Source: an uncultured bacterium (GTDB taxonomy: Bacteria > Babelota > Babeliae > Babelales > Vermiphilaceae). Taken from it: 64,000 bases of DNA. The DNA is taken from positions 1,216,001-1,280,000 of the forward strand of contig OY969699.1 in NCBI GenBank assembly GCA_963702025.1, in the 5' to 3' direction. Below are positions 1-12,528 of this stretch, piece after piece; position 1 is the stretch's first letter, and every line of letters starts with the position of its first letter. Below the pieces are notes generated by a model, which worked only from the letters and a program-made list of their open reading frames with translations, searched no databases and was not told the DNA's origin. A program made the position numbers and the translations under genes.

Positions 1-120
1 ACTAAAAAAATAAGGATCTTTTGTGGACCAAATACACCGTGCGAGCAGAACAACAAAATTACTCTATTTAGAAAATTTCAGTCCAATGCCGGCAACTTAA
101 ACATTAGAAAATTCATTTTT

Positions 121-428
121 AATCGCCTTCCAGGCGGTGGCCAAAGGGTGTTAAATCTGAACACCCTTTGGAATCCCCAGACCAAGGCTGCGCCTTTGGA
201 TCCCTCATTTCGTGCCAATTCGCGACCTCGCGCTTCGCGCTCCAATCGCTCAGTGGCACTTGTCTGAATTTACTTATTAAACTAAAAATCAGCAGAAAAA
301 TCCGTTCATGGTGAGTGCCGCCTGCAGCGCAGCGTATCGAACCATAAAAAAGTTTCTAAGTTAGAAACAAAATGTTCGTAAGCAAAAATAACTGAGCCCG
401 CTCGGGCGCTTTCGCGACCGGCTTGCCT
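121..428 (-). repeat. Copy A of a ~300-bp structured repeat (inverted relative to copy B at ~8590-8925)
   Basis: 121-285 matches the reverse complement of 8761-8925 with 3 mismatches in 165 nt; looser similarity continues to ~428; multiple internal hairpins. Confidence 0.9.
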
Positions 429-502
429 TTAGTCCCGAGCGAAGTCGAGGGGCCCGTTGCGGGCTCTACGTACATTTAATGTATGAAACGTTGAGATCTG
501 AT

Positions 503-716
503 TGCGATATATGTATGAACCGACGCAGCTCCCGAAGGGAGATGAGTTGGTGAGTTTATCGCATGGGGATTCTAAAGGGCTCCCCCTTTAGTGTGTGGTG
601 GCCTGGAGGGGTTCACAAGAATCCCTCCAGTTTAAAATAATTTTGCGAAAACATTCCCGCGTTTTATATCTTTGGTGACAGGGAGCGTGGGGGTATTTTC
701 AAGAATACCACCACGT
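503..716. repeat. Hairpin-rich non-coding tract including a diverged GGGGATT-CYAAAGGG...CCCTTTRG...GCCTGGAGGG module (565-630)
   Basis: Hairpins GCGATA/TATCGC, CTCCC-GAA-GGGAG, CTAAAGGG/CCCTTTAG, CTGGAGGG/CCCTCCAG, CGTGG-GGTATT/AATACC-CCACG. Confidence 0.6.
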
Positions 717-815
717 TTATCGCACGCACGTGAGCAATCTCCGTGACATCAAACATATGACAATCAGAAAACTAAAGCAAAATGGACCGAATGTTCGCGT
801 GGCTTACGCGGTTGA

Positions 816-1700
816 TTAAGAATCAAAGCTATTAGTATTTTGTACGTTCGTTGTAAATTGCCCTTTCAATTGAGAAGCATCTTCATTCGAATTACTTTCT
901 TCAAAGTAATCAGGCAACTCTGAATTTTCAGGACTTATTGAGTTTGTTATTTCTTCTTTTTCGCTACAATGCGGTATCACTTGAGCTACTTGTACAGCTT
1001 TCTCATTGTCATTTGGTTGCGGTGATTTTTTCTCAATAAAAATACTACAGTATTTTTTTAAATCTTTATGCTGCTCAATAAACTGAGCTATAACACCAGC
1101 ATCATTATAGACAATAATATTTTCGCAATTATATTTGCTCGCTTGATTGGTCATATTATATGAACCGTTAATTAACAATTTCCCTTTGCCGATTTCTTTA
1201 TCAAAAAATATCATAAATTTATGATGCATTTTTTGCATAGCATTCGATGGTTCACGTCTTTTATTTTGAATTAAGACCTGGATTCCCGCTTGAGAAAGTT
1301 TGTTTAAGGTATTTGCATCTTGTTGTCCCGCTTCCCTATCAACAATCAGTAAATCATCTTTAGGCGATGTTTTATAGATATCTGCTTTCATAATGGCATT
1401 AATATCATTGCGAGCGCGCGCTTTTTCAAATTCTTGAATATATTTTCTTCCCGCCCACCATGATGTTAAATTATCAGCATTAATACGATAATAAGCAGCC
1501 CAAATTGGCCCTTCTTCAGTCACCATCAAATTTTTGATCGCATCTTCAATGTGGGGAGTAAAATAAGCCTTTGGGTAGACAATTAACTCTTTTTTTTCTT
1601 GCTTTTCTTCGATCTTCTGTTTCTTTTGTGCGCTTTGCTCCATAGCAAAAACAGAAGCACACTGTGCCGCCAAAAGAGTTATGAAAAGTAATTTTTTCAT
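816..1700 (-). CDS. Secreted phospholipase D superfamily protein (single HKD, Nuc/Zucchini-like)
   Basis: MHHKFMIFFD...LINGSYNMT...NCEN motif; N-terminal signal peptide ending SVFA-ME. Confidence 0.8.
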   Translation of the reverse strand: MKKLLFITLLAAQCASVFAMEQSAQKKQKIEEKQEKKELIVYPKAYFTPHIEDAIKNLMVTEEGPIWAAYYRINADNLTSWWAGRKYIQEFEKARARNDINAIMKADIYKTSPKDDLLIVDREAGQQDANTLNKLSQAGIQVLIQNKRREPSNAMQKMHHKFMIFFDKEIGKGKLLINGSYNMTNQASKYNCENIIVYNDAGVIAQFIEQHKDLKKYCSIFIEKKSPQPNDNEKAVQVAQVIPHCSEKEEITNSISPENSELPDYFEESNSNEDASQLKGQFTTNVQNTNSFDS

Positions 1701-1717
1701 GATATTTTCTCCATTTT

Positions 1718-3250
1718 TTAGTCGTTATTAAAATTCTTTGCAGAGCTTTTTAACTTTACTACTTTGTCATTCTGAGAAACTTTTTTTCTCAGCTCTTCTT
1801 TGCGTTCTTTTGCCTTGTTTTTAGCGATTTCATGTTTTCTATATTTTCCCGCAATTATTTCTTTTTGCTCTTTTGATAGATTCATATATTCTTTTGCTTT
1901 TCTTCGCTCTTCTTTGGTCGCATTGCCCACAATGTCTTTTATTTTATTAAATTCGTCAGCTCTCATTCGCTTTCTTGCTCTCGAGTTTGATTTTTTTTCA
2001 AGCAACAGCATGTAATACTTCATTATGCATGCAACGTTATCCAAACTTACGTTCGACTCATTTGTATTTTCTTTTATTTCTGACAATTCAATTTTGCCAG
2101 ATGACTTCTGTTCTTTTTTCATTTTAGACTTAGATTCAGTTAAATCAGAACCATGCAAAGGATTAAAAAATCTGTGATAGCAACAACTATCAGCAAAGAA
2201 GATCTCAAAGGTTCCGTAAATTATTTTACCTTTTATTACCATAGATCCTGGCAATAATACTTTTGTTTCATTTTTATTTGTTTCGAAGAACCCGTATTTT
2301 TTTGCATAGTCATCAATTCTTAATGGGAATGCATGAAAAGGTATCGCATATTTTGCTGTAGTAAATCTATGATTATTCGGGTCGCGATAGCCGCCCTCTT
2401 GCAAATTTATCTCAGGATTTTTATACCACTTACTGATAGTCTGCGTAGTCGATTCATACCAAAATGCAGGCATTGACTCGTCCTTAACTTGGTAAAGATA
2501 TATCGATGTATTATTTCTTTTATCGACAACTTCAAAAACTCTTTTAATATTAGTAAGCTCTTTTTTCAGTTGATCGCCGAGAGCGTAGGGATGCAATACA
2601 TCATTAACAAATAAATCTTTTTCATATTCTGTAAATTCATACTTTTGAGCTATTTGTTCTTTTTTAATAGTGAGATGCTCCGTATTTAGATTTAAACTCT
2701 CAATTCCTATTATAAAGTTTTGTATGGATAAACGAACTAGCCTGATAGTTTCCTTCACATTATTTGCAAGATTTTCATTTATATGGACAGATGGTTTCAA
2801 TAATTCCACTAGCCGTGCATGTTCCTTTAGATATTTAATGAACACGGTATCAATGTACTGTGTCGATTTATCTAAATCAGTAATGGTATTTTTCTCAACG
2901 TTGCATATCTTTTCGATAATGTTATCTATTAAGCCAAGTCGAAAACTTTCTTGCGATAGCTGTGCCTGAAAAAGAGCTAAATTACAAAGAATTTGATTTT
3001 TATCTTCACACGATGCAAAATTCTCTTTTGCTATTTTTGTTTCAATTTTTTGTACTTTTTTATTAAGAGCCTGAACTTCATCGAGAGCCTTAAGATGGAT
3101 GATGGCTATTTCAGAGAAGATTTGACGCAACTCTGCTTTGGTGGTCTTTCGTTCTGATATTTCTAATGCGTTGTTCGGGTTAGGTATTTCCATTGCTTGA
3201 GCCATGAAGGGAAGCATACCTGCTACAATAAGAATTCTATAATTAAACAT
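1718..3250 (-). CDS. Secreted protein with HxF...GxFE...YHRxF toxin-like domain and Lys-rich tail
   Basis: Signal peptide AQA-ME; FHAFP...LLPGSMVIKGKIIYGTFEIFFADSCCYHRFFNP; start chosen at the Met after the GGAG RBS. Confidence 0.65.
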   Translation of the reverse strand: MFNYRILIVAGMLPFMAQAMEIPNPNNALEISERKTTKAELRQIFSEIAIIHLKALDEVQALNKKVQKIETKIAKENFASCEDKNQILCNLALFQAQLSQESFRLGLIDNIIEKICNVEKNTITDLDKSTQYIDTVFIKYLKEHARLVELLKPSVHINENLANNVKETIRLVRLSIQNFIIGIESLNLNTEHLTIKKEQIAQKYEFTEYEKDLFVNDVLHPYALGDQLKKELTNIKRVFEVVDKRNNTSIYLYQVKDESMPAFWYESTTQTISKWYKNPEINLQEGGYRDPNNHRFTTAKYAIPFHAFPLRIDDYAKKYGFFETNKNETKVLLPGSMVIKGKIIYGTFEIFFADSCCYHRFFNPLHGSDLTESKSKMKKEQKSSGKIELSEIKENTNESNVSLDNVACIMKYYMLLLEKKSNSRARKRMRADEFNKIKDIVGNATKEERRKAKEYMNLSKEQKEIIAGKYRKHEIAKNKAKERKEELRKKVSQNDKVVKLKSSAKNFNND

Positions 3251-3296
3251 GTTTTTCTCCACTTTTGATCTAATATTTTGACCTATACTTATAAGC

Positions 3297-3390
3297 TTAG
3301 CCCAAATACACTTATTGTCAAATAGAAATTAATAATGTACTTCTACCCTGTTTTGCCTCTTTAGCCCCCCAAATTAGCCCATTTTAGCCC
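3297..3390. promoter_or_regulatory. Four TTAGCCC direct repeats in a divergent intergenic region
   Basis: TTAGCCC at 3297, 3361, 3374, 3384, upstream of a TTGCAA...TATGCT promoter-like pair. Confidence 0.4.
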
Positions 3391-3454
3391 ATTTAAATAA
3401 TTTCTACTTGCAATTAGTAACGCCTATGCTATGCTATGGTTTATGGAGGATTTT

Positions 3455-5287
3455 ATGAAATTATTCAAATTACTATCAATTTTTACGTTTATTACTGTTA
3501 TTTCTCATAACGCCCAAGGAATGGAGGCCCAAAAGCCTACAGCGTCAGGGTATACGTCACAATTTATCCCGCCTAACCAATCAGCTAAGGATGTGCTTCG
3601 TAATGGGCAAATTTTAGGCACAAATGAAGAGCCCCAACAAATGATCGAACGCGTAGTGAATGCTATTGCTTCAATAGATAAAGATCTGAACCTTAAAAAT
3701 ATGCTTTCAACTACTGAATTTGCTCAGCAATTGGGCATACTTATGGATGAGCATGCGATAGTATTAAGCACCCCAATTTTAACCAATGCGGGCAACTCTG
3801 AAAATAGACCCCTTTCTGCCTGCGTGATGCCCCCTGTCAATTTAAGAGACGATTTAAAGAAAATTAAACCAATAGTAGATAAGTACCATCAAGATGGTAT
3901 GGGTACCGGGTATAATTTATCAGATGCTCTTGATCCGATTGAAACCCTTACATCCCTTAATAAGGTTGCAGTAGAAGGCGCGCAAAGTAAAAAAGAAAAG
4001 CGTCCAGTTGGCAATATGGCAATTCTGGATGTTGATTCTCCTGATATTGAAAAATTTGTCATGGCAAAAGTAGGAGCAGATGATCGGGGGGAGGACTGGA
4101 AATTTAACATTTCAGTAAATATTAATGATGCATTTATGGATGCAGTTGAAAACAATCGCGAATTTACGCTCAAAAATAGTACCAAGATTTCAGCCAAAGA
4201 ACTGTTTAAAAAAATGGCATATGCGGCACACCAATGCGGTGACCCTGGCCTTATTTCCCTTGAACGATTAAATGCCGATAATCCAACACCAAGTGTCGGC
4301 GAATACAAATGTACCGCTCCCTGCGCGGAAGTTGGATTGGCACCCGGCGAAACATGTGTGTTTGGTTATATTAACTTAGCTAAATTAGTAACCAATGATG
4401 CGCAACCTTCAGTGAATTTTGATCGATTAAAAACTGTTGTCACCTTGCTCACGCGCGCACTCGACGATATTCTGGAAATAAGCATTCAACGATATTCTAT
4501 CGAAGAAAGCAAAACAGTAATGCAAGCCAAAAGAAAAATTGGTCTCGGAATTTGTGGATTTGCTGACATGCTTATGGCGCTCAACATTCCTTATGATTCA
4601 GACCAAGCGCGCAATCTTTTACAAGATATTCTTAATTTTATAAGTTATCATTCAAAAGAAGCTTCTTTTGAATTAGCCAAAACTCGCGGATCCTTTACCG
4701 CAATCGGCGATAGTAAATTTATGGATGAATCATTTATAATGAACAAATATGGCAGCCTTAAAACGCCCCATGTTTCACGCGAACAATGGCAATCATTGGC
4801 CAAAAAAATCAAGGAAACCAAATTGCTCCGCAATGCAACAACAAGTGCTTTACCGCCCACTGGCAGAAGTGCGATGGTTATTGGCGCTTCAACAGGAATT
4901 GAGCCGGTATTTAGCCTTAATTCTTCAGATGGCATACATCCATTGTTGTACACATTCTTAAAAAAGTATTCTCTGCATGAAAATACCGCGATCGTTGATG
5001 AAATTAACAAAACCGGTTACGCACCACAAACAATTAAAGCAATGAATCCTTCTTTTGTAACGGCTACTGAAATAGCGCCAAAAGATCATCTTGCTATGGT
5101 TATTGCTGCGCAGAAAGCTATCGATGAATCAATATCAAAAACAATCAACTTACCGGAACAAACAACGCCGGAGCAAATCGAAGAGATTTACAAGAATGCC
5201 TATGCACAAGGATTAAAAGGAATGTCCGTGTTTAGAAATAATTCACGTTCCTTTCAACCTAAGAAATTGACGGATGAAAAAAAATAA
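3455..5287 (+). CDS. Class II (NrdJ-like) ribonucleotide reductase homolog, non-canonical, with signal peptide
   Basis: STPILTNAG, LSAC, NMAIL, FNISV, GDPGL, TAPCAE, ETCVFGYINL, RKIGLGICG, PPTG, GIEP, DESISKTINLP, GLKG-FR motifs; no YY dyad; GGAGG RBS before ATG 3455. Confidence 0.85.
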   Translation: MKLFKLLSIFTFITVISHNAQGMEAQKPTASGYTSQFIPPNQSAKDVLRNGQILGTNEEPQQMIERVVNAIASIDKDLNLKNMLSTTEFAQQLGILMDEHAIVLSTPILTNAGNSENRPLSACVMPPVNLRDDLKKIKPIVDKYHQDGMGTGYNLSDALDPIETLTSLNKVAVEGAQSKKEKRPVGNMAILDVDSPDIEKFVMAKVGADDRGEDWKFNISVNINDAFMDAVENNREFTLKNSTKISAKELFKKMAYAAHQCGDPGLISLERLNADNPTPSVGEYKCTAPCAEVGLAPGETCVFGYINLAKLVTNDAQPSVNFDRLKTVVTLLTRALDDILEISIQRYSIEESKTVMQAKRKIGLGICGFADMLMALNIPYDSDQARNLLQDILNFISYHSKEASFELAKTRGSFTAIGDSKFMDESFIMNKYGSLKTPHVSREQWQSLAKKIKETKLLRNATTSALPPTGRSAMVIGASTGIEPVFSLNSSDGIHPLLYTFLKKYSLHENTAIVDEINKTGYAPQTIKAMNPSFVTATEIAPKDHLAMVIAAQKAIDESISKTINLPEQTTPEQIEEIYKNAYAQGLKGMSVFRNNSRSFQPKKLTDEKK

Positions 5288-5310
5288 TAACCAAACTCTA
5301 AAGATCGAAT

Positions 5311-5775
5311 ATGATGAACACCGATATTTTTGCAGCACAGCTTATTAAAACCGCGCTGGAGGATGGCATACAAAAGCTCTCCGTTGGCGCGGCTTTTCTT
5401 CATGAAGGCAAATTGCTCATTCTTAAGCGGTCCGCTCATGATTTTATGCCAAACATATATGAACTCCCGGGAGGCGCGCTAGAGAAAGATGAATCTTTGC
5501 TCCAAGCCCTGGAACGAGAATTGCTCGAAGAAACAAATTGCTCCATCGATAAAGTTATCGGCTATATTGGCCATATAGATTTTCTCTCATCATCGGGATT
5601 GCGCACCCGACGATTTAATTTCTTAATTCAACCGAAATTACCACTATCAGTTCAATTAACCGAACATGACGATTATCAATGGATTATCCCCTCAGCTGCA
5701 GTCAACTACCAGATTACGTCAAAAACACGCACAATGATTGCTCACGTGCAGAAGAATGATATTCATCGATTTTGA
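5311..5775 (+). CDS. NUDIX hydrolase
   Basis: Nudix box PGGALEKDESLLQALERELLEETN; 23 bp downstream of the RNR homolog. Confidence 0.9.
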   Translation: MMNTDIFAAQLIKTALEDGIQKLSVGAAFLHEGKLLILKRSAHDFMPNIYELPGGALEKDESLLQALERELLEETNCSIDKVIGYIGHIDFLSSSGLRTRRFNFLIQPKLPLSVQLTEHDDYQWIIPSAAVNYQITSKTRTMIAHVQKNDIHRF

Positions 5776-5852
5776 CCTATTCTCTAGTTAATTAATGCAA
5801 TTTGCAATTTATTAATTTTCTGCTATCTTGGGTTTATATGGAGGAATTTACG

Positions 5853-7442
5853 ATGAAAAACAGATATTTTTTATACCTGAGCCTTTTGCTTTGCATTTCA
5901 CTCATAGATGCGATGGAGCTTCCTGAAAAAGTTACCCAAGAACAGGTTCAATCATCAGAAAAAATAAGCGTAATAAATCCTGTTGTCATAGAGCCGGAAT
6001 TTGGTAAAAACTATGATTACTCCTCAATACTCAACCCTGACTGTGATCTCCCTGAAGCTGAATATAAGCGACGCCTAAAAATCTTCAAAAATTATTTATT
6101 TGACTACCTTGAAGGAATGGAACGAACTGACATGCATTCAGGGTCGGCTCTTGATTTTATACAAACCTATCTGTACTTGATCTCCATAATCAAAGAAAGC
6201 GCCGAATCCCTCCCACTCTATAATAAGCAACCGATAGTAGACTTTATTCCCGAAAAAGCACTTTCTCGCAACTATAAAAAAATCAAAATTCCTGCTGGGT
6301 ATATTACAATAGGAACGTCAGTAAAAAAACAAGGAAATGAGGTTTCCATTAGTCCTCAAACTCCGGTATATGTTATTACCGATCCTGATGCAGAAAGTAT
6401 GTGTCTTTTATTTAGCGAACTGAACGCAAAAAAATTAAACCCGCTCCAAAAAACATCATTAATAGTCGGACTTTGGCAACAACAAGGGTTAAGTGAGCAG
6501 GCAACCCGCGTTATGCACTGTTATGTGTATGGCATTGCCAAACGTTTGTTAAATGATCTGGTTAACACCGCACAAGAAAAGAAAAAAATTGCGCTCGAAA
6601 GTCCGGAAAACAAAACGGTGAGATACTGCATTTTTAATTGTCCCCACCTTTTAAAGCTAACCGCATTACAAGAACGTTTGTTACGATCCCCGCAAGATTT
6701 TCTTGGCACCCTGCCCGATGATACGGTAGGTTTTATTGCAACCGTGTTACCAACATTCATTGATTTGCACAACTATGCGGCAAAATTACCGGATCTGTGC
6801 AAAGAATATGCCACAATATATGATCGCATCAAGCAAGAACTCAAAGCATTTAAAAAGAAAAATAAAGAAAAAACAGAAAAAGTTAAACCGGCAGAAATAC
6901 CGGCAATTAAGCCTGTGCCGGCAGCAATGGTAGAAAAGCCATTGCCCGCAAAAATTACCTATTCCAAACGAGTAACCCAATGGTTTAAAGATGGCTTTAT
7001 AAAAAAGAAAAAAAATCGAGAAATTAATTATCATACCTTATTACCAATGATCGCTGATCGTATTCTGATTCAGCATGGTCAAATCTCTGACTATCTCAAT
7101 AAAAGCTACAAAGGCGAAATTGATACGCTGTATCGTATTGCTGGCAAAATTGAATATGAGGATAAAGCAAAAGATGAAACCTATTGCGTATTTAATATCT
7201 GCATAGATCAACAAGATATCTGTTATCACCGCGAGTGCAAAAAATGCACTTGGGAAAAATTAGCAGAAACATTAAAAAATGAGATTTTCATTGAAGATGA
7301 TGCAGCGCATGAAGCAGACGATGTGGCCATTGTGGAACAACCGGAACAAAAAGCAGCCATTCTCAAAGAGACAAATGCCTATGCGGTAATTTATAATCCG
7401 ATGCACAAGTGTAAAATTACGTTGTATAAAAAACAGATATAA
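5853..7442 (+). CDS. Secreted protein with C-terminal H...YHR toxin-like domain
   Basis: Signal peptide IDA-ME; YSKRVTQWF...YHTLL..AD...YRIAGKIEY...VFNICIDQQDICYHRE; GGAGG RBS. Confidence 0.6.
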   Translation: MKNRYFLYLSLLLCISLIDAMELPEKVTQEQVQSSEKISVINPVVIEPEFGKNYDYSSILNPDCDLPEAEYKRRLKIFKNYLFDYLEGMERTDMHSGSALDFIQTYLYLISIIKESAESLPLYNKQPIVDFIPEKALSRNYKKIKIPAGYITIGTSVKKQGNEVSISPQTPVYVITDPDAESMCLLFSELNAKKLNPLQKTSLIVGLWQQQGLSEQATRVMHCYVYGIAKRLLNDLVNTAQEKKKIALESPENKTVRYCIFNCPHLLKLTALQERLLRSPQDFLGTLPDDTVGFIATVLPTFIDLHNYAAKLPDLCKEYATIYDRIKQELKAFKKKNKEKTEKVKPAEIPAIKPVPAAMVEKPLPAKITYSKRVTQWFKDGFIKKKKNREINYHTLLPMIADRILIQHGQISDYLNKSYKGEIDTLYRIAGKIEYEDKAKDETYCVFNICIDQQDICYHRECKKCTWEKLAETLKNEIFIEDDAAHEADDVAIVEQPEQKAAILKETNAYAVIYNPMHKCKITLYKKQI

Positions 7443-7460
7443 TCGAACTCAACCACACTC

Positions 7461-8285
7461 TCACTTCTGATCCACGGGGCAATAATAGGCGGATCTACCG
7501 GCGATCGTAACTTTTTTTAGCTTATGTTTGGCATTTTTTGGGCAAAGCATGTCGGTGTGCCGATGCGCCTGCAAGTAGGAAGATTTAAATTCAGAGGCTT
7601 CCTGCGGCGACCAATGTTGTGATGTGCCAATATCTTTATTTTTAATCCGCACTTTAATTGCGTAGCTTAACACCGCGCGCATCTGCCGATACATCTTTTG
7701 AATCACTTGGGGCGATAAATCTTTAACACTGTGGTGCGGATCAATGTCTGCTTGAAACAATATTTCATCCGAATATTCGTTACCGATTCCGGCAATTACC
7801 GTTTGATCCATTAAAAACGCTTTAACATTTTTCTTCTTATTTTTCTCAACAAGAGCTTCAAATACAGACAAAGAAAGTTGTAACGGATCAGGGCCCATTT
7901 CTTTGAGAGCCTTAATATCATCAAGTGAATCTACCAGCCAAATTCTGCCAAACTTTCTAACCGAACAATAATGGAGATCCTCTTTTGCAAATGAAAAATC
8001 GACGCAGGAAAAACGTACCGTTTCACCTGGCTTGCCCAGCACTAAAAATCCGGTGAGGCCAAAATGCATAACCAATTTTTCTTTGGATGAGGTGGTCACA
8101 ATAAGATATTTACCCATGCGCGCGGCTGCAGTAAATGAAACACCCGTGAGACTTTTTTTAAATTGCGCAGAACTTATTTTTTCCAGCAAACGGCCGCATG
8201 AAACCGTTACATCGGTTACCTTTTTATTAAGGCAATGGGTGGCAACATAGTGGGTAAATGCTTCGACTTCCGGTAGTTCTGGCAT
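7461..8285 (-). CDS. Fpg/Nei family DNA glycosylase (MutM-like)
   Basis: N-terminal PELPEVE, GKYL, MHFGLTG, H2TH motif LMDQ..IAGIGNEYSDEIL, C-terminal GRSAYYCP. Confidence 0.9.
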   Translation of the reverse strand: MPELPEVEAFTHYVATHCLNKKVTDVTVSCGRLLEKISSAQFKKSLTGVSFTAAARMGKYLIVTTSSKEKLVMHFGLTGFLVLGKPGETVRFSCVDFSFAKEDLHYCSVRKFGRIWLVDSLDDIKALKEMGPDPLQLSLSVFEALVEKNKKKNVKAFLMDQTVIAGIGNEYSDEILFQADIDPHHSVKDLSPQVIQKMYRQMRAVLSYAIKVRIKNKDIGTSQHWSPQEASEFKSSYLQAHRHTDMLCPKNAKHKLKKVTIAGRSAYYCPVDQK

Positions 8286-8441
8286 ATTCATCCTTTATTT
8301 ACATTTCTTGCAGCGGTGTGCATTTGAAAAATTAACACGCATCTATACCCTAATAAGCATGATTGATTAATGTCAATAAGTTACATATGGGGCAATGTAA
8401 AATTTCTTGAGTAGTCATTTATTACACATGGTGAGTGAGAG

Positions 8442-8636
8442 CCCTTCGATAAACTCGGGAGTAAATACAAGCATCAGCCACACTCCGTTCGTGCTGACCC
8501 TTCGGCAAACTCAGGAGTAAACGCCCAGCCTGCCCGCCGAAGCTTTAGCGAAGGCTGGGTCGAAGCATTTTTTATCAGAATTATATTTTATTTGGCCTAG
8601 CCGGTCGGCGGAGTTTATCCTGAGCTTGTCGAAGGG
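8442..8636. repeat. Cluster of REP-like palindromes
   Basis: CCCTTCGATAAACTCGGGAGTAAA (8442), CCCTTCGGCAAACTCAGGAGTAAA (8498), CCTGCCCGCCGAAGCTTTAGCGAAGGCTGGG (~8529), inverted TCCTGAGCTTGTCGAAGGG (~8618). Confidence 0.8.
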
Positions 8637-8962
8637 CGCCCGAGCGGGCTCCTGTTATTTTTTCTCTTTAACTTAATTGTGCTAACTCAGAAAGTTTTTT
8701 CATGTTCAATAAACTATGCTGCGCGCACCGCTCAGTATGAACGGATTTTTCTGCTAGTTCTTAGTTTAATAAGTAAATTCAGACAAGTGCCACTGAGCGA
8801 TTGGAGCGCGAAGCGCGAGGTCGCGAATTGGCACGAAATGAGGGATCCAAAGGCGCAGCCTTGGTCTGGGGATTCCAAAGGGTATTCAGATTTAATACCC
8901 TTTGGCCACCGCCTGGAGGGCGATTAATAAATAATATTCCTACCGCTGGCCGCGTAGGCCAA
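8590..8962 (+). repeat. Copy B of the structured repeat, candidate ncRNA or MITE-like element
   Basis: Near-identity to 121-285 in reverse; ends pair (TTTGGCCTAgcCGGTCGGCGG with CCGCTGGCCGcgTAGGCCAAA) using two G-U pairs. Confidence 0.75.
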
Positions 8963-9034
8963 ATTAAAAATAAATTTCTTAATGCTATAATTTGCGAGCA
9001 AGCAAAATTCGAGGAATTAAACCTGCAGAGTTTT

Positions 9035-9460
9035 TTAAACAATCGCTAATACTTTATCCGATTGTATTCTTGAAACACACGTTTCAATAATTTTTTTATG
9101 CGGTTCAAATATAGTTTCAGGTAATTGCGCCATATCAAAAAAACACCATTCTTCACATAAATCCGGTTCCATCGTTGCTATGGTGCCGGTAAATTTATGA
9201 AGCAAAAAAGACATGTGCAGATAATGCCGCTGCTCGGCAATACTATCAATAACGCTCAGCAATGTGAATTCTAACCCCTCGATACCCAATTCTTCTTTTA
9301 ATTCTCGTTTTGCGCACTCTATAAGCGTTTCTCCATATTCTAAGTGCCCACCGGGCAGGGCCCATGTTCCGGCGCCGTAGCAATTCTTTCTTTTGCCCAA
9401 TAATAAAGCGTTATCTTTGACGATAAATATCTCACAGCCTATTTTTATTATGTTGTTCAT
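9035..9460 (-). CDS. NUDIX hydrolase (MutT/NUDT15-like)
   Basis: WALPGGHLEYGETLIECAKRELKEELG; EPDLCEEW motif. Confidence 0.9.
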   Translation of the reverse strand: MNNIIKIGCEIFIVKDNALLLGKRKNCYGAGTWALPGGHLEYGETLIECAKRELKEELGIEGLEFTLLSVIDSIAEQRHYLHMSFLLHKFTGTIATMEPDLCEEWCFFDMAQLPETIFEPHKKIIETCVSRIQSDKVLAIV

Positions 9461-9547
9461 AAGTATTCACTTATTGATTAGAATAAGAAACAAATAAGGG
9501 ATGGCTAAGAGGCCATCCCCATTCATTATTGTTACATTCAAAATTAG

Positions 9548-10408
9548 TTATAACGAGCAACTACCATTTTCACAAGAACTCTTTTGCCCCTTTTCACGAT
9601 GCTCTTTAAAAACAGCATCAATCTTTTCAAAATTCTCACTCAACATCTTAAAGCGCATTACCATAGCGGCCGGATATTCAGCAAGATCAACTTCTTGAGG
9701 ATTACCGGGAAATACGCATTTGGTAGAAGCACCATTTTTCAACAAGAATTTCACCAACTCCGTAACTTCAATCCCGCTGGCCCCAAGCATAATGATTGCC
9801 AATCCAAGCGGTGTAAACCCTTGCGCAGATACCGCGTTAATATCAGCGCCGGCATCAATCAAACGTTGTAAAGCATCAAGCTCGGCCATACTTTGAACTG
9901 ATTGGATCAGTTTATCATTGAGTGTCTTTTGATCGAGAGAACGTAAATCTTTGGGCATGCTCAATGCTTGGGTGATGCGTTCCATTAGTGTTTCTTTTGT
10001 TTGTTGCCCAATTATTTTTTCAATTAAGGTGCCCGCACTAAAAATACCAATGGTCGGAATTGACATGATCTTACATTCTTGGGCAAACTCCTTGCACTCA
10101 TCAATGTTCACTGTCGCAAAAGTATATTTACCTTTGAGCTCGTCAGCAATCTCTTCAAATATCGGCTTCATCACTTTGCAAGGGCCGCACCATTCAGCAT
10201 AGAAATCAACAATCAGAATATTGGGTATGTTTTGAACAATTGTTTTAATGTTAGCAGGAGTAAGTTGTGTTACACTCGAATTTCTTTTTGGTTCCATAGG
10301 TTCAGCCTCCTTGGCAAGTGATGATTTTTGGCTATTTGTTTTAGCATTAAAAATAGAGATTGGAATTATAAGCACTAAAAGTATTGCAACTAAGAATAGT
10401 TTATTCAT
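9548..10408 (-). CDS. Thioredoxin-ankyrin fusion with N-terminal signal/anchor and C-terminal CENGSC tail
   Basis: VDFYAEWCGPCK, SIPT; LIDAGADINA...GFTPL ankyrin; GAGGGG RBS before ATG 10408. Confidence 0.85.
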   Translation of the reverse strand: MNKLFLVAILLVLIIPISIFNAKTNSQKSSLAKEAEPMEPKRNSSVTQLTPANIKTIVQNIPNILIVDFYAEWCGPCKVMKPIFEEIADELKGKYTFATVNIDECKEFAQECKIMSIPTIGIFSAGTLIEKIIGQQTKETLMERITQALSMPKDLRSLDQKTLNDKLIQSVQSMAELDALQRLIDAGADINAVSAQGFTPLGLAIIMLGASGIEVTELVKFLLKNGASTKCVFPGNPQEVDLAEYPAAMVMRFKMLSENFEKIDAVFKEHREKGQKSSCENGSCSL

Positions 10409-10520
10409 GATATCCCCCTCAGGAATTGGCGTTTTAAAAAGTATTTTATTTCTTTGTAAAAGCACATTTAGGCAAGTATACGCCCTTTTTTGCATTATTC
10501 AACGATCAAAAATGCTTTTA

Positions 10521-11738
10521 TTACTCTACAAAAGTGATCGCCTGCCCAATTTTATCAGCGCGCCCGGTACGGCCAATACGATGAATATAATCTTCATGAG
10601 TTTGTGGCAAATCGTAGTTGATCACATGCGAAACATCATCAATATCAATCCCGCGGGCGACCACGTCAGTAGCCAAAAGAATACGAACTCTATCATTTTT
10701 AAATGAGGCCAAAGCCCTGCTGCGCTGCGCCTGAGATTTATCACCATGAATGGTAGCAACCTCAAATCCCCGTTCGTTTAACATGCGTGCCAATTTATCA
10801 ACAGCACGCCGCGTGCGTAAAAAGATAATAACTTTTTTAAATTCCGGCTTAATCAGTAAATCATGCAGGAGATCAACTTTATTTTTCAAGCCGATCTTGA
10901 TCACTGTTTGATTTACATTTTCTGCCGTCTGACGCGTTTTAACACTGATAATCACCGGATTACGCAAAAAGCCGGACATAACCTCTTTAAGTGATGGCGG
11001 AATAGTGGCTGAGAAGAATAATGAGTGCCGTTTTTGCGGCAACTTACTAATAATGTATTTAATATCATTAATAAAGCCCATATCCACCATGGTGTCCACT
11101 TCATCAAGCACAATCGCATTGTATTTATGCAGGAGCAAAATTTTATCTTGTTCCAGATCCAATAATCTGCCCGGGGTGCCGATAACAAATTGCGGATGAT
11201 GAGAAAGATCTCTAATTTGGTGCATAATATTGAGCCCGCCAATGCATAATGCGGAACTGAGTCCGGTTTTGTGTGCAAAACTTTTAAACTCACCCTGAAT
11301 TTGGCTGGCCAGTTCACGCGTTGGGGTAACAATCAATACTCGATCCGTTTTTTTGGTGAGCACATCATTGATCAACGGAATTAAAAAAGCTGCAGTTTTA
11401 CCCGTGCCGGTATTTGCTGATGCGATAACATCCTTGCCTTGCAACAAAAGTGGAATCACCTGATCTTGAATCGGCGTTGGCGTGAGATACCCTTTATGGG
11501 CAATATTCTGTTTAATCTGATCTTCAATCAAAAAATCAGCAAAGGTGTTTTTGGGGATATAGGCATTGGCTACCACCTGCTCTTCAACCTTTTTCATGAA
11601 CATTGAAGGATCGAATTTTTTAATTACTCTCTTGGATTGTCCGCGCCCCTTGCCTCCCGGCTTATGTGAACCTGAACGCCATGATCCGGACTTATTGCCA
11701 AACCCTTTTGGCCCTTTTTTACTACGATTGAATGTCAT
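10521..11738 (-). CDS. DEAD-box RNA helicase
   Basis: Q motif PTPIQ, TGTGKT, PTRELA, TPGR, LDEVD, SAT, ARGID, HRIGRTGR. Confidence 0.95.
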   Translation of the reverse strand: MTFNRSKKGPKGFGNKSGSWRSGSHKPGGKGRGQSKRVIKKFDPSMFMKKVEEQVVANAYIPKNTFADFLIEDQIKQNIAHKGYLTPTPIQDQVIPLLLQGKDVIASANTGTGKTAAFLIPLINDVLTKKTDRVLIVTPTRELASQIQGEFKSFAHKTGLSSALCIGGLNIMHQIRDLSHHPQFVIGTPGRLLDLEQDKILLLHKYNAIVLDEVDTMVDMGFINDIKYIISKLPQKRHSLFFSATIPPSLKEVMSGFLRNPVIISVKTRQTAENVNQTVIKIGLKNKVDLLHDLLIKPEFKKVIIFLRTRRAVDKLARMLNERGFEVATIHGDKSQAQRSRALASFKNDRVRILLATDVVARGIDIDDVSHVINYDLPQTHEDYIHRIGRTGRADKIGQAITFVE

Positions 11739-11896
11739 GGAATATAACCTTCATTAAGGAATTAGCTGTTTTTGATTGAATACTATCAGTATGACCTATT
11801 TAGGCCCAACCAGCAATAAAAGGCTTAAAATGGCCCTAATTTGGTCAAAATACCCTTTTAGGGTCCTTTTTGCCCAAAAAGAGCTTAATTTCCCGC

Positions 11897-11924
11897 TTGA
11901 CATTCGCCTCATATTAATTACAAT
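11897..11924 (+). promoter_or_regulatory. Sigma70-type promoter for the effector array
   Basis: TTGACA-16 nt-TACAAT, preceded by a tract of alternating A/T runs and CCC/GGC motifs (11800-11895). Confidence 0.55.
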
Positions 11925-11964
11925 TAGAATATAGTTAAAAATTAAACCTAAAATGGGGTATTCA

Positions 11965-12528
11965 ATGAAAACTAAGCTCATATTCTGTCTCAGCGGGCTC
12001 ATGCTTGCAGGCAATGCTTTGCCTATGGAAAAGGCGCATGTTTTTTACAACTATAATGAAAGTGACGAAACGCTCAAAACATATCAAAGGCTTACAACAC
12101 ATCTGAGCGGACAGGAAACAGCCAATTCATATTTACAGCGTCTGCCAAATGACCTTTTAGAAATGGTGCAAACGTATCTACCTGAGAAAAAAGAAAGTGA
12201 CAAATTAGGAGCTTATTTAAAGATACTGAATCCTTTAAATCCTGAAAATAGAAATGCCTGTACAGCATCAATCTTTTATTCTTTAATCGGGCCAGCAGTC
12301 GCGTGGTATAATTTCATGTCGAGTAGAAATTCTTCGCAAGGTCGGTTGCAACCAACTAGCTTTTTATGTAGTCAAGCAATAGCAAACACTGGAATTTTAA
12401 TCTACCTTGTAGGGACATTAAACTTAAATCGAGAAATTCAAGGTTTGGTGTTTTTATTAGGGGCTTTGTATAACATACGCCACCATACTATAAATTTAGA
12501 AAAAGCCGCCCTCGGCTTGAATAAATGA
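11965..12528 (+). CDS. Secreted/membrane protein with F-box-like motif
   Basis: Signal peptide ALP-ME; YLQRLPNDLLEMVQTYL; hydrophobic C-terminal segments. Confidence 0.55.
   Translation: MKTKLIFCLSGLMLAGNALPMEKAHVFYNYNESDETLKTYQRLTTHLSGQETANSYLQRLPNDLLEMVQTYLPEKKESDKLGAYLKILNPLNPENRNACTASIFYSLIGPAVAWYNFMSSRNSSQGRLQPTSFLCSQAIANTGILIYLVGTLNLNREIQGLVFLLGALYNIRHHTINLEKAALGLNK

Follow-up and report, generated by a model that had tools for sequence, protein, structure and literature searches.

A ribonucleotide reductase (RNR) relative that lacks both the finger-loop asparagine and the specificity-effector site is encoded directly ahead of a NUDIX hydrolase gene in the genome of an uncultured bacterium of the Vermiphilaceae (phylum Babelota). 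The gene lies in a stretch of 64,000 nucleotides (GenBank assembly GCA_963702025.1, contig OY969699.1, positions 1,216,001 to 1,280,000, forward strand), which is called the window below. Judged from their sequences, the Asn-less relatives of this protein, P0001, are a conserved clade and not decayed copies; the clade is real and apparently undescribed. The window adds to it a predicted export leader and the lineage context. We consider the chances about even that P0001 is an unregulated B12-dependent radical enzyme whose product, an abnormal nucleotide used in biological conflict, is erased or processed by the NUDIX protein; from the sequence we infer altered chemistry and action outside the cytoplasm. 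The features that carry the argument are listed here, with counts taken from an alignment of 106 full-length variants, chosen for the absence of the Asn, and 18 canonical NrdJ matches.

3455-5287 (+): Asn-less class II (NrdJ-like) RNR homologue P0001, 610 aa (TIGR02504 score, confidence of the structure model, fold match to Thermotoga maritima NrdJ)
4313-4330 (+): finger loop TAPCAE, with Ala288 for Asn, Pro289 (class II marker), radical Cys290 and Glu292 (alignment)
3821-3823 (+): Cys123, first redox Cys (104 of 106 variants)
4355-4369 (+): Cys301, second redox Cys, with clade-specific Phe303 and Tyr305 (103, 105 and 102 of 106)
3908-3937 (+): collapsed loop 1, specificity-effector site lost (comparison of loop lengths)
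4001-4015 (+): end of loop 2, RPVGN, with Arg183 kept (Arg in 103 of 106)
3767-3775 (+): apical phosphate loop Ser-Thr-Pro, diphosphate type (PNSP in T. maritima)
4553-4555 (+): extra clade-specific Cys367 (90 of 106), Met in canonical NrdJ
4853-4870 (+): distal phosphate loop PPTGRS, Pro467 and Arg471 clade-specific (alignment)
5216-5236 (+): last barrel strand KGMSVFR, class II type without YY dyad; the short tail beyond it has no Cys
5311-5775 (+): MutT-like NUDIX hydrolase P0002, 154 aa, no leader (PF00293 above its cut-off, E 3e-12)
about 5473-5538 (+): intact Nudix box within P0002
3445-3449 (+): GGAGG ribosome-binding site, 5 nt ahead of ATG 3455 (sequence)
3455-3520 (+): predicted Sec-type leader ending in AQG/ME, of a type common in this genome; cleavage and export putative

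By its sequence and its modeled fold, P0001 is derived from class II RNRs. It scored 406.6 bits against the adenosylcobalamin (AdoCbl)-dependent NrdJ model TIGR02504, a marginal pass over the cut-off of 399.95. The structure model reached a predicted local distance difference test score of 93.9, and the best solved relative by both sequence and fold was T. maritima NrdJ (Z 41.5, root-mean-square deviation 2.2, 538 aligned residues, 28% identity), a dimeric AdoCbl-dependent class II nucleoside diphosphate reductase (PDB 1XJE, 3O0O). The 10-stranded RNR barrel with a finger-loop Cys was present (Cys290 in all 106 variants), as was the class II combination of Pro at position 438 with no YY dyad (Pro289 in 105). 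Marks of class I and class O alpha subunits were not seen: the YY dyad was not found, its positions being occupied by T/S/A and then V/I/L/F/M, and no ferritin-like family occurred among neighbors recurring in at least three of 96 loci. A sequence-only reading of the window had listed a missing ATP cone, YY dyad and C-terminal Cys pair as signs of rewiring. All three are indeed absent, but the first two absences are ordinary because the protein is class II-derived. Class O RNRs (Synechococcus phage S-CBP4), as described in the available text of 10.1101/2022.04.23.489257, are likewise short, class II-like and without an ATP cone. They differ in three respects, none of which was seen at P0001: loop 1 is retained and has TTP bound, the YY dyad is there, and a ferritin-like gene lies next to the RNR gene. 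The ESM Atlas offered nothing beyond generic RNR clusters.

With T. maritima NrdJ the protein shares the fold, the radical Cys, the Glu, the redox Cys pair, the Pro after the Asn position, the class II last strand and the apical loop, whose S/G-T-P form is the diphosphate type in the accessible part of PMC8365446. The differences are concentrated in the active site. TAPCAE aligned with TNPCGE of T. maritima NrdJ, and the kept radical Cys, Glu (Glu292 in 105 variants) and redox cysteines Cys123 and Cys301 bore out what had been read from the sequence. Cys123 corresponds to E. coli C225. The N-C-E-C signature (E. coli N437, C439, E441, C462), as defined in the text available of 10.1101/2021.01.20.427478, is broken in P0001 by Ala at the Asn position. 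Loop 1 had a median length of 10 residues in the 106 variants compared with 24 in the 18 canonical enzymes; the effector loop is thus about 14 residues shorter, and its Asp-Ser is lost. Loop 2 reads RPVGN where canonical enzymes have RRGAN, with the Arg retained and the spacing changed, so that the collapsed specificity loop and the altered loop 2 were both upheld. Together with the loss of the Asn, the clade has acquired Phe303 and Tyr305 (Leu and Ser in canonical NrdJ), Cys367, Pro467 and Arg471 of the distal phosphate loop, Glu558 and a different loop 2 spacing; beta-F differs from that of T. maritima NrdJ as well. The beta-hairpin region comprises 53 residues in the variants and 62 in canonical NrdJ. 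The C-terminal region of P0001 aligns to T. maritima NrdJ without the C-terminal Cys domain; two-Cys tails occurred in 5 of 106 variants versus 16 of 18 canonical sequences, and the TSCPD/NrdJb domain (PF12637) was not found in this 95% complete genome. P0001 works like an NrdJ-type radical enzyme yet lacks two defining features, and it is filed as a variant and not as a member.

These changes are shared by the whole clade. The motif xAPC[AG]E was present in 119 of 119 top homologues, so that the search for APCxE homologues found it clade-wide. Among the best 150 representatives at 50% identity, the Asn position held Ala in 83, Ser in 7, Pro in 7, Val in 3 and Asn in 30; the other 20 gave no motif. 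A FastTree phylogeny separated the variants from the canonical sequences, apart from one weakly placed row (P0176). Values of dN/dS were 0.08-0.23 in 14 of 16 pairs, the remaining two being saturated, which disposes of strain-specific decay. Named members come from Babelota, Falkowbacteria, Clostridiales, Planctomycetota, Egibacteraceae, Amycolatopsis and Tistrella, and most of the metagenome contigs appear to be candidate phyla radiation-like. The distribution is patchy: 10 of 261 Babelota genomes carry the gene and none of seven other genomes of the same genus does, and in an actinobacterial order a strict threshold gave one match among the 201 genomes sampled. No literature on an Asn-less RNR clade or an exported RNR was found in a search that left subscription papers mostly outside. 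The RNR phylogeny papers describe loop 1 in their available parts as common to classes I, II and O, and a text search of what was available of the Protein Science version for "Asn", "Nudix" and "signal peptide" gave nothing. The clade may have been overlooked because the pipeline of 10.1101/2021.01.20.427478, in the portion available, treats sequences without N-C-E-C as by-catch, and because poorly aligned sequences were removed from the RNR phylogeny, as its accessible text states.

A phage origin was considered and rejected. A single-protein viral scan found nothing, an alignment scan gave 48 loci of which only one (L087) had the variant motif, the best phage record match carried canonical TNPCGE, and a further viral scan returned a distant RNR-like match without the motif; a plasmid match (H2) was canonical as well. 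On the viral contig L087 (194-13675), a PfkB-enzyme-NUDIX cassette follows a shortened terminase gene and is enclosed by two repeats of one gene block, which could reflect either an insertion or a repeat introduced in assembly. Two canonical NrdJ proteins, P0149 and P0151 (1351 and 1600 aa), showed duplicated barrel matches, in P0151 with a Ham1 (ITPase-like) domain between them. L148 (MW495066.1), deposited as a 274-kb Microcystis phage, has icd, acnA, rpoD and rny around nrdZ and looks like a bacterial chromosome. In the actinobacterial locus L149 (4-4235), a divergent regulator-like gene, the enzyme, a NUDIX gene and an XRE-type gene follow one another, and XRE/DUF5753 neighbors likewise occur at L021.

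The NUDIX gene claimed downstream of P0001 is there: P0002 starts 23 bp past the P0001 stop. Its box was compared with the Nudix motif GX5EX7REUXEEXGU and reads with Asn in place of the last Gly. Like MutT-family nucleotide sanitizers, P0002 has the box intact, and its nearest solved structures are of the MutT and CTP pyrophosphohydrolase types; unlike them, it stays below all NCBIfam cut-offs and is coupled, elsewhere even fused, to an RNR relative. With 12 NUDIX matches among the 1445 open reading frames (ORFs) of this genome, chance adjacency would be about 1%. One of the other NUDIX genes lies in the window at 9035-9460 (-), 3.3 kb downstream.

The pairing with nucleotide-handling genes recurs across the clade. 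Of 96 loci, 93 had the gene; removal of 9 duplicates and of 12 with less than 700 bp downstream left 72, whose partners were labeled by Pfam on representatives. A recurrent nucleotide-handling neighbor was present within about 3 kb in 63 of the 72, compared with 1 of 39 canonical loci. NUDIX genes were counted in 37 loci, CYTH in 24, dTMP-kinase-like genes in 19, GreA-like genes in 18, deoxyribosyltransferase/DNPH1-like genes in 8, two groups of P-loop kinases in 6 and 7, and APH in 4; the first downstream gene was NUDIX in 29 and CYTH in 20. Fusions of the enzyme to NUDIX (P0012, P0030, L059), HD (P0155, P0164, L082) and kinase domains (P0142) were also found, so the proposed conservation of the NUDIX neighbor holds. 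Nine loci showed no partner: in two of them the enzyme is fused to HD and kinases come next, and five are leader-bearing Babelota copies with the motif VAPCGE. The GreA-like proteins (L012, L013, L020, L035, L053, L073 and others) have an HDN motif at the coiled-coil tip and fall below the GreA and GreB cut-offs; a plasmid search for this family gave only ordinary GreA-level matches. On plasmid pTM3 of Tistrella mobilis the order is NUDIX, enzyme, PfkB kinase and a TIR-domain protein, the TIR match being weak. At L082 (850-5138) and L083 (7935-13424), the enzyme is fused to a SAMHD1-like HD domain, and the genes after it encode kinases of the APH and adenylate types that have hydrophobic leaders. 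VakA, the PADLOC label of one kinase partner, was a name not found in papers.

P0001 is not the only RNR of its genome (1.6 Mb, one contig), which encodes class I nrdA and then nrdB elsewhere. All 10 Babelota carriers have another RNR, six in the form of a second PF02867 gene and four as class III NrdD. That the enzyme might be the sole RNR of some genomes was considered for the four carriers without another PF02867 gene and abandoned, as all four have NrdD. Likewise, the lack of PF02867 in 69 of 261 Babelota genomes does not suffice to call them RNR-free. Thus, in Babelota the enzyme is accessory and not housekeeping. The four NrdA-less carriers yielded no NrdB (PF00268), which excludes a class I beta subunit as their radical source. 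These four genomes (G229, G150, G140, G157) are exactly the ones carrying the VAPCGE subgroup without a NUDIX neighbor, G157 with two copies. Neither B12 adenosyltransferases, sought as two families, nor a BtuC-type permease above the cut-off turned up in the five carriers searched for each, which is soft evidence in such genomes but fits the use of host cofactor. This genome has three TLC nucleotide-carrier genes.

From these observations the following scheme can be proposed. P0001 would be an accessory thiyl-radical enzyme of NrdJ descent, part of a mobile nucleotide-conflict cassette. AdoCbl would generate the Cys290 radical, which would abstract a ribose hydrogen from a nucleoside diphosphate; departure of the hydroxyl would be helped by Glu292 and Cys123, the intermediate would be reduced by Cys123/Cys301, and an outside thiol would reset the enzyme. 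In the absence of an allosteric site and with a changed pocket, the product might be foreign to the cell, either with an altered sugar or as the deoxy form of an unusual substrate, and might harm a virus, competitor or host. NUDIX, or elsewhere CYTH, HD or DNPH1-like proteins, would erase or process it, kinases would supply or activate it, and the GreA-like factor may rescue RNA polymerase. Babelota would have added the export leader of their lineage, and the enzyme would work inside the protist host on the host's B12; the NUDIX protein, having no leader, would guard the bacterium, whose genome encodes nucleotide carriers. The retained residues point to genuine radical redox chemistry on a nucleoside diphosphate, loss of the effector site speaks against a balanced dNTP supply, and the interchangeable erasers and kinases suggest a product in need of special handling; taken together, they are why a conflict role with an abnormal nucleotide is favored.

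The logic resembles that of viperin and of prokaryotic viperin with its CMPK2-like nucleoside monophosphate (NMP) kinase: a radical enzyme acting on nucleotides, patchily distributed and linked to NMP kinases, as the accessible part of 10.1101/2023.09.13.557418 reports for viperins. Fold and cofactor are unrelated, P0001 having an RNR fold and no radical-SAM viperin domain, and P0001 has no PADLOC match; the proposal is that it would work like viperin, not that it is one. A wider version of the proposal is speculative and rather doubtful: the RNR fold would have been turned from DNA-precursor synthesis to a sugar-altered, polymerase-blocking nucleotide, as a counterpart of viperin, serving small bacteria in defense cassettes alongside genes for kinases, erasers and GreA-like rescue, and protist parasites as an exported effector running on host cobalamin.

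Several points weigh against the abnormal-nucleotide proposal. The retained Cys, Glu and Cys-Cys are the residues that ordinary 2'-reduction requires. Class III RNRs have Met at the finger-loop Asn position, according to the available part of the source, so the Asn is not universal. Ordinary dNDP products would fit, since the SAMHD1-like HD, DNPH1-like and dTMP kinase partners are nearest to deoxy-specific families. Use of B12 is not certain, because the cofactor-linked beta-hairpin is about 9 residues shorter. The partner contrast with canonical loci is inflated by profiles built from variant loci and by a control consisting mostly of related phages; no partner gene was seen near the five leader-bearing Babelota copies; and in PADLOC only 4 of 29 neighbors matched, in each case a candidate or generic model. 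The product, the cofactor and export itself are putative.

The first three of these points also speak for ordinary 2'-deoxygenation without allosteric control, the main rival and a serious one, which we hold to be possible though not likely. Tyr305, which could compensate for the Asn, or another residue would then take its place; bulk dNDPs would feed the parasite or, with the hydrolases, unbalance or drain host or phage pools. The narrowly passed NrdJ_Z cut-off agrees with this, as does the existence of class II enzymes with Cys-less C-terminal tails, for which small thiols may serve according to the portion of the source available. Against it, all 10 Babelota carriers own an RNR already, GreA-like and TIR partners would be superfluous for dNTP supply, and seven further pocket positions have changed alongside the Asn. 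A 3'-deoxy product, for its part, would require different sugar binding.

Where the enzyme acts is a question independent of its chemistry. ATG 3455 was preferred as the start over the in-frame ATG 3431 because of the GGAGG 5 nt upstream, and the resulting N terminus (ORF 3455-5287) is MKLFKLLSIFTFITVISHNAQG-ME. The claimed signal peptide-like leader is present: it passed a crude signal-peptide rule, and residues 1-24 had low confidence in the structure model. Leader, finger loop and the RNR-NUDIX junction showed no differences in contigs from two DNA runs, possibly of the source sample; two RNA runs contained the same 151-base piece at low depth, which is not evidence of expression. The rule is loose and passes 850 of the 1445 ORFs of this genome, of which at least 221 have a leader with the motif [AGSC]M[EDQ] as in P0001. 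In a cultured relative, 44% of coding sequences have predicted signal peptides according to the accessible text of PMC6561590, which also reports replication wrapped by the host mitochondrion. Among the top homologues only 22 of 119 were flagged, compared with 9 of 11 Babelota copies, spread over three families. On these counts the leader is a lineage add-on, normal for the phylum and no trait of the enzyme family, so that export as a family property fell; export of P0001 itself is plausible. Two well-supported Babelota groups stand apart in the trees. Two independent leader gains are not claimed, as the approximately unbiased test does not reject a single clade (p = 0.136).

It is unlikely, but deserves weight, that the leader leads only to the periplasm or is an inconsequential habit of the lineage, so that the enzyme never reaches the host. 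The abundance of such leaders, the leaderless majority of homologues and the adjacent leaderless NUDIX favor this. Retention of the leader in most Babelota copies, the failure to find B12-handling genes in the carriers tested and the hydrophobic leaders at the start of an adjacent adenylate kinase (G194) and of kinases at two other loci do not. Near P0001, a thioredoxin-ankyrin protein (9548-10495, -) has a hydrophobic leader at its likely start and is a possible reductant in the compartment of an exported enzyme; a leader-bearing PLD-like protein (816-1700, -) and an Fpg-type DNA glycosylase (7461-8291, -) were also seen. Elsewhere in the clade, the N termini of P0012, P0155, P0164, P0198 and P0240 are Arg/Lys/Ser-rich, acid-poor extensions resembling mitochondrial presequences, a lead toward host-mitochondrial targeting; AdoCbl is used in mitochondria. 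The region holding P0001 is flanked by a non-coding repeat of about 410 bp (8572-8982), with 40-nt terminal inverted repeats, and its 87% identical inverted copy at 107-392; about 5 long and 18 short matches occur in the genome. The element appears similar to a miniature inverted-repeat transposable element, and Rfam gave no family within window positions 1-12000, this repeat included.

It is improbable that P0001 is an uncoupled radical lyase destroying nucleotides to free base, pyrophosphate and furanone. Asn437 mutants of E. coli R1 show such nucleotide decomposition, the Asn is lost clade-wide, and a lyase needs no re-reducing tail, in line with the rarity of two-Cys tails and the missing TSCPD/NrdJb domain. 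The same decomposition products are described for an inhibitor adduct in the available part of PMC11482829. Cys301, needed for reduction only, is nevertheless kept, which makes a destructive lyase less likely, and without a lasting phosphorylated product the NUDIX or CYTH partners would be harder to explain. A decayed or catalytically dead copy, suggested by the loss of a residue treated as essential, by the discarding of such sequences in validation pipelines (10.1101/2021.01.20.427478, as far as its text was available) and by one split actinobacterial copy, is scarcely credible in the face of the low dN/dS, the invariant Cys290 and the spread over several phyla.

A large clade under purifying selection without two defining features means that RNR chemistry may run without them, which offers a direct test of the accepted mechanism, and the cultured carrier of plasmid pTM3, T. 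mobilis, makes the enzyme testable. Alternatively, the RNR fold has a second role, the production of conflict nucleotides, and this could lead to a new nucleotide analogue and a new biocatalyst. An exported RNR-type enzyme, if true, would be a new route for an intracellular parasite to act on the nucleotide pools of its host.

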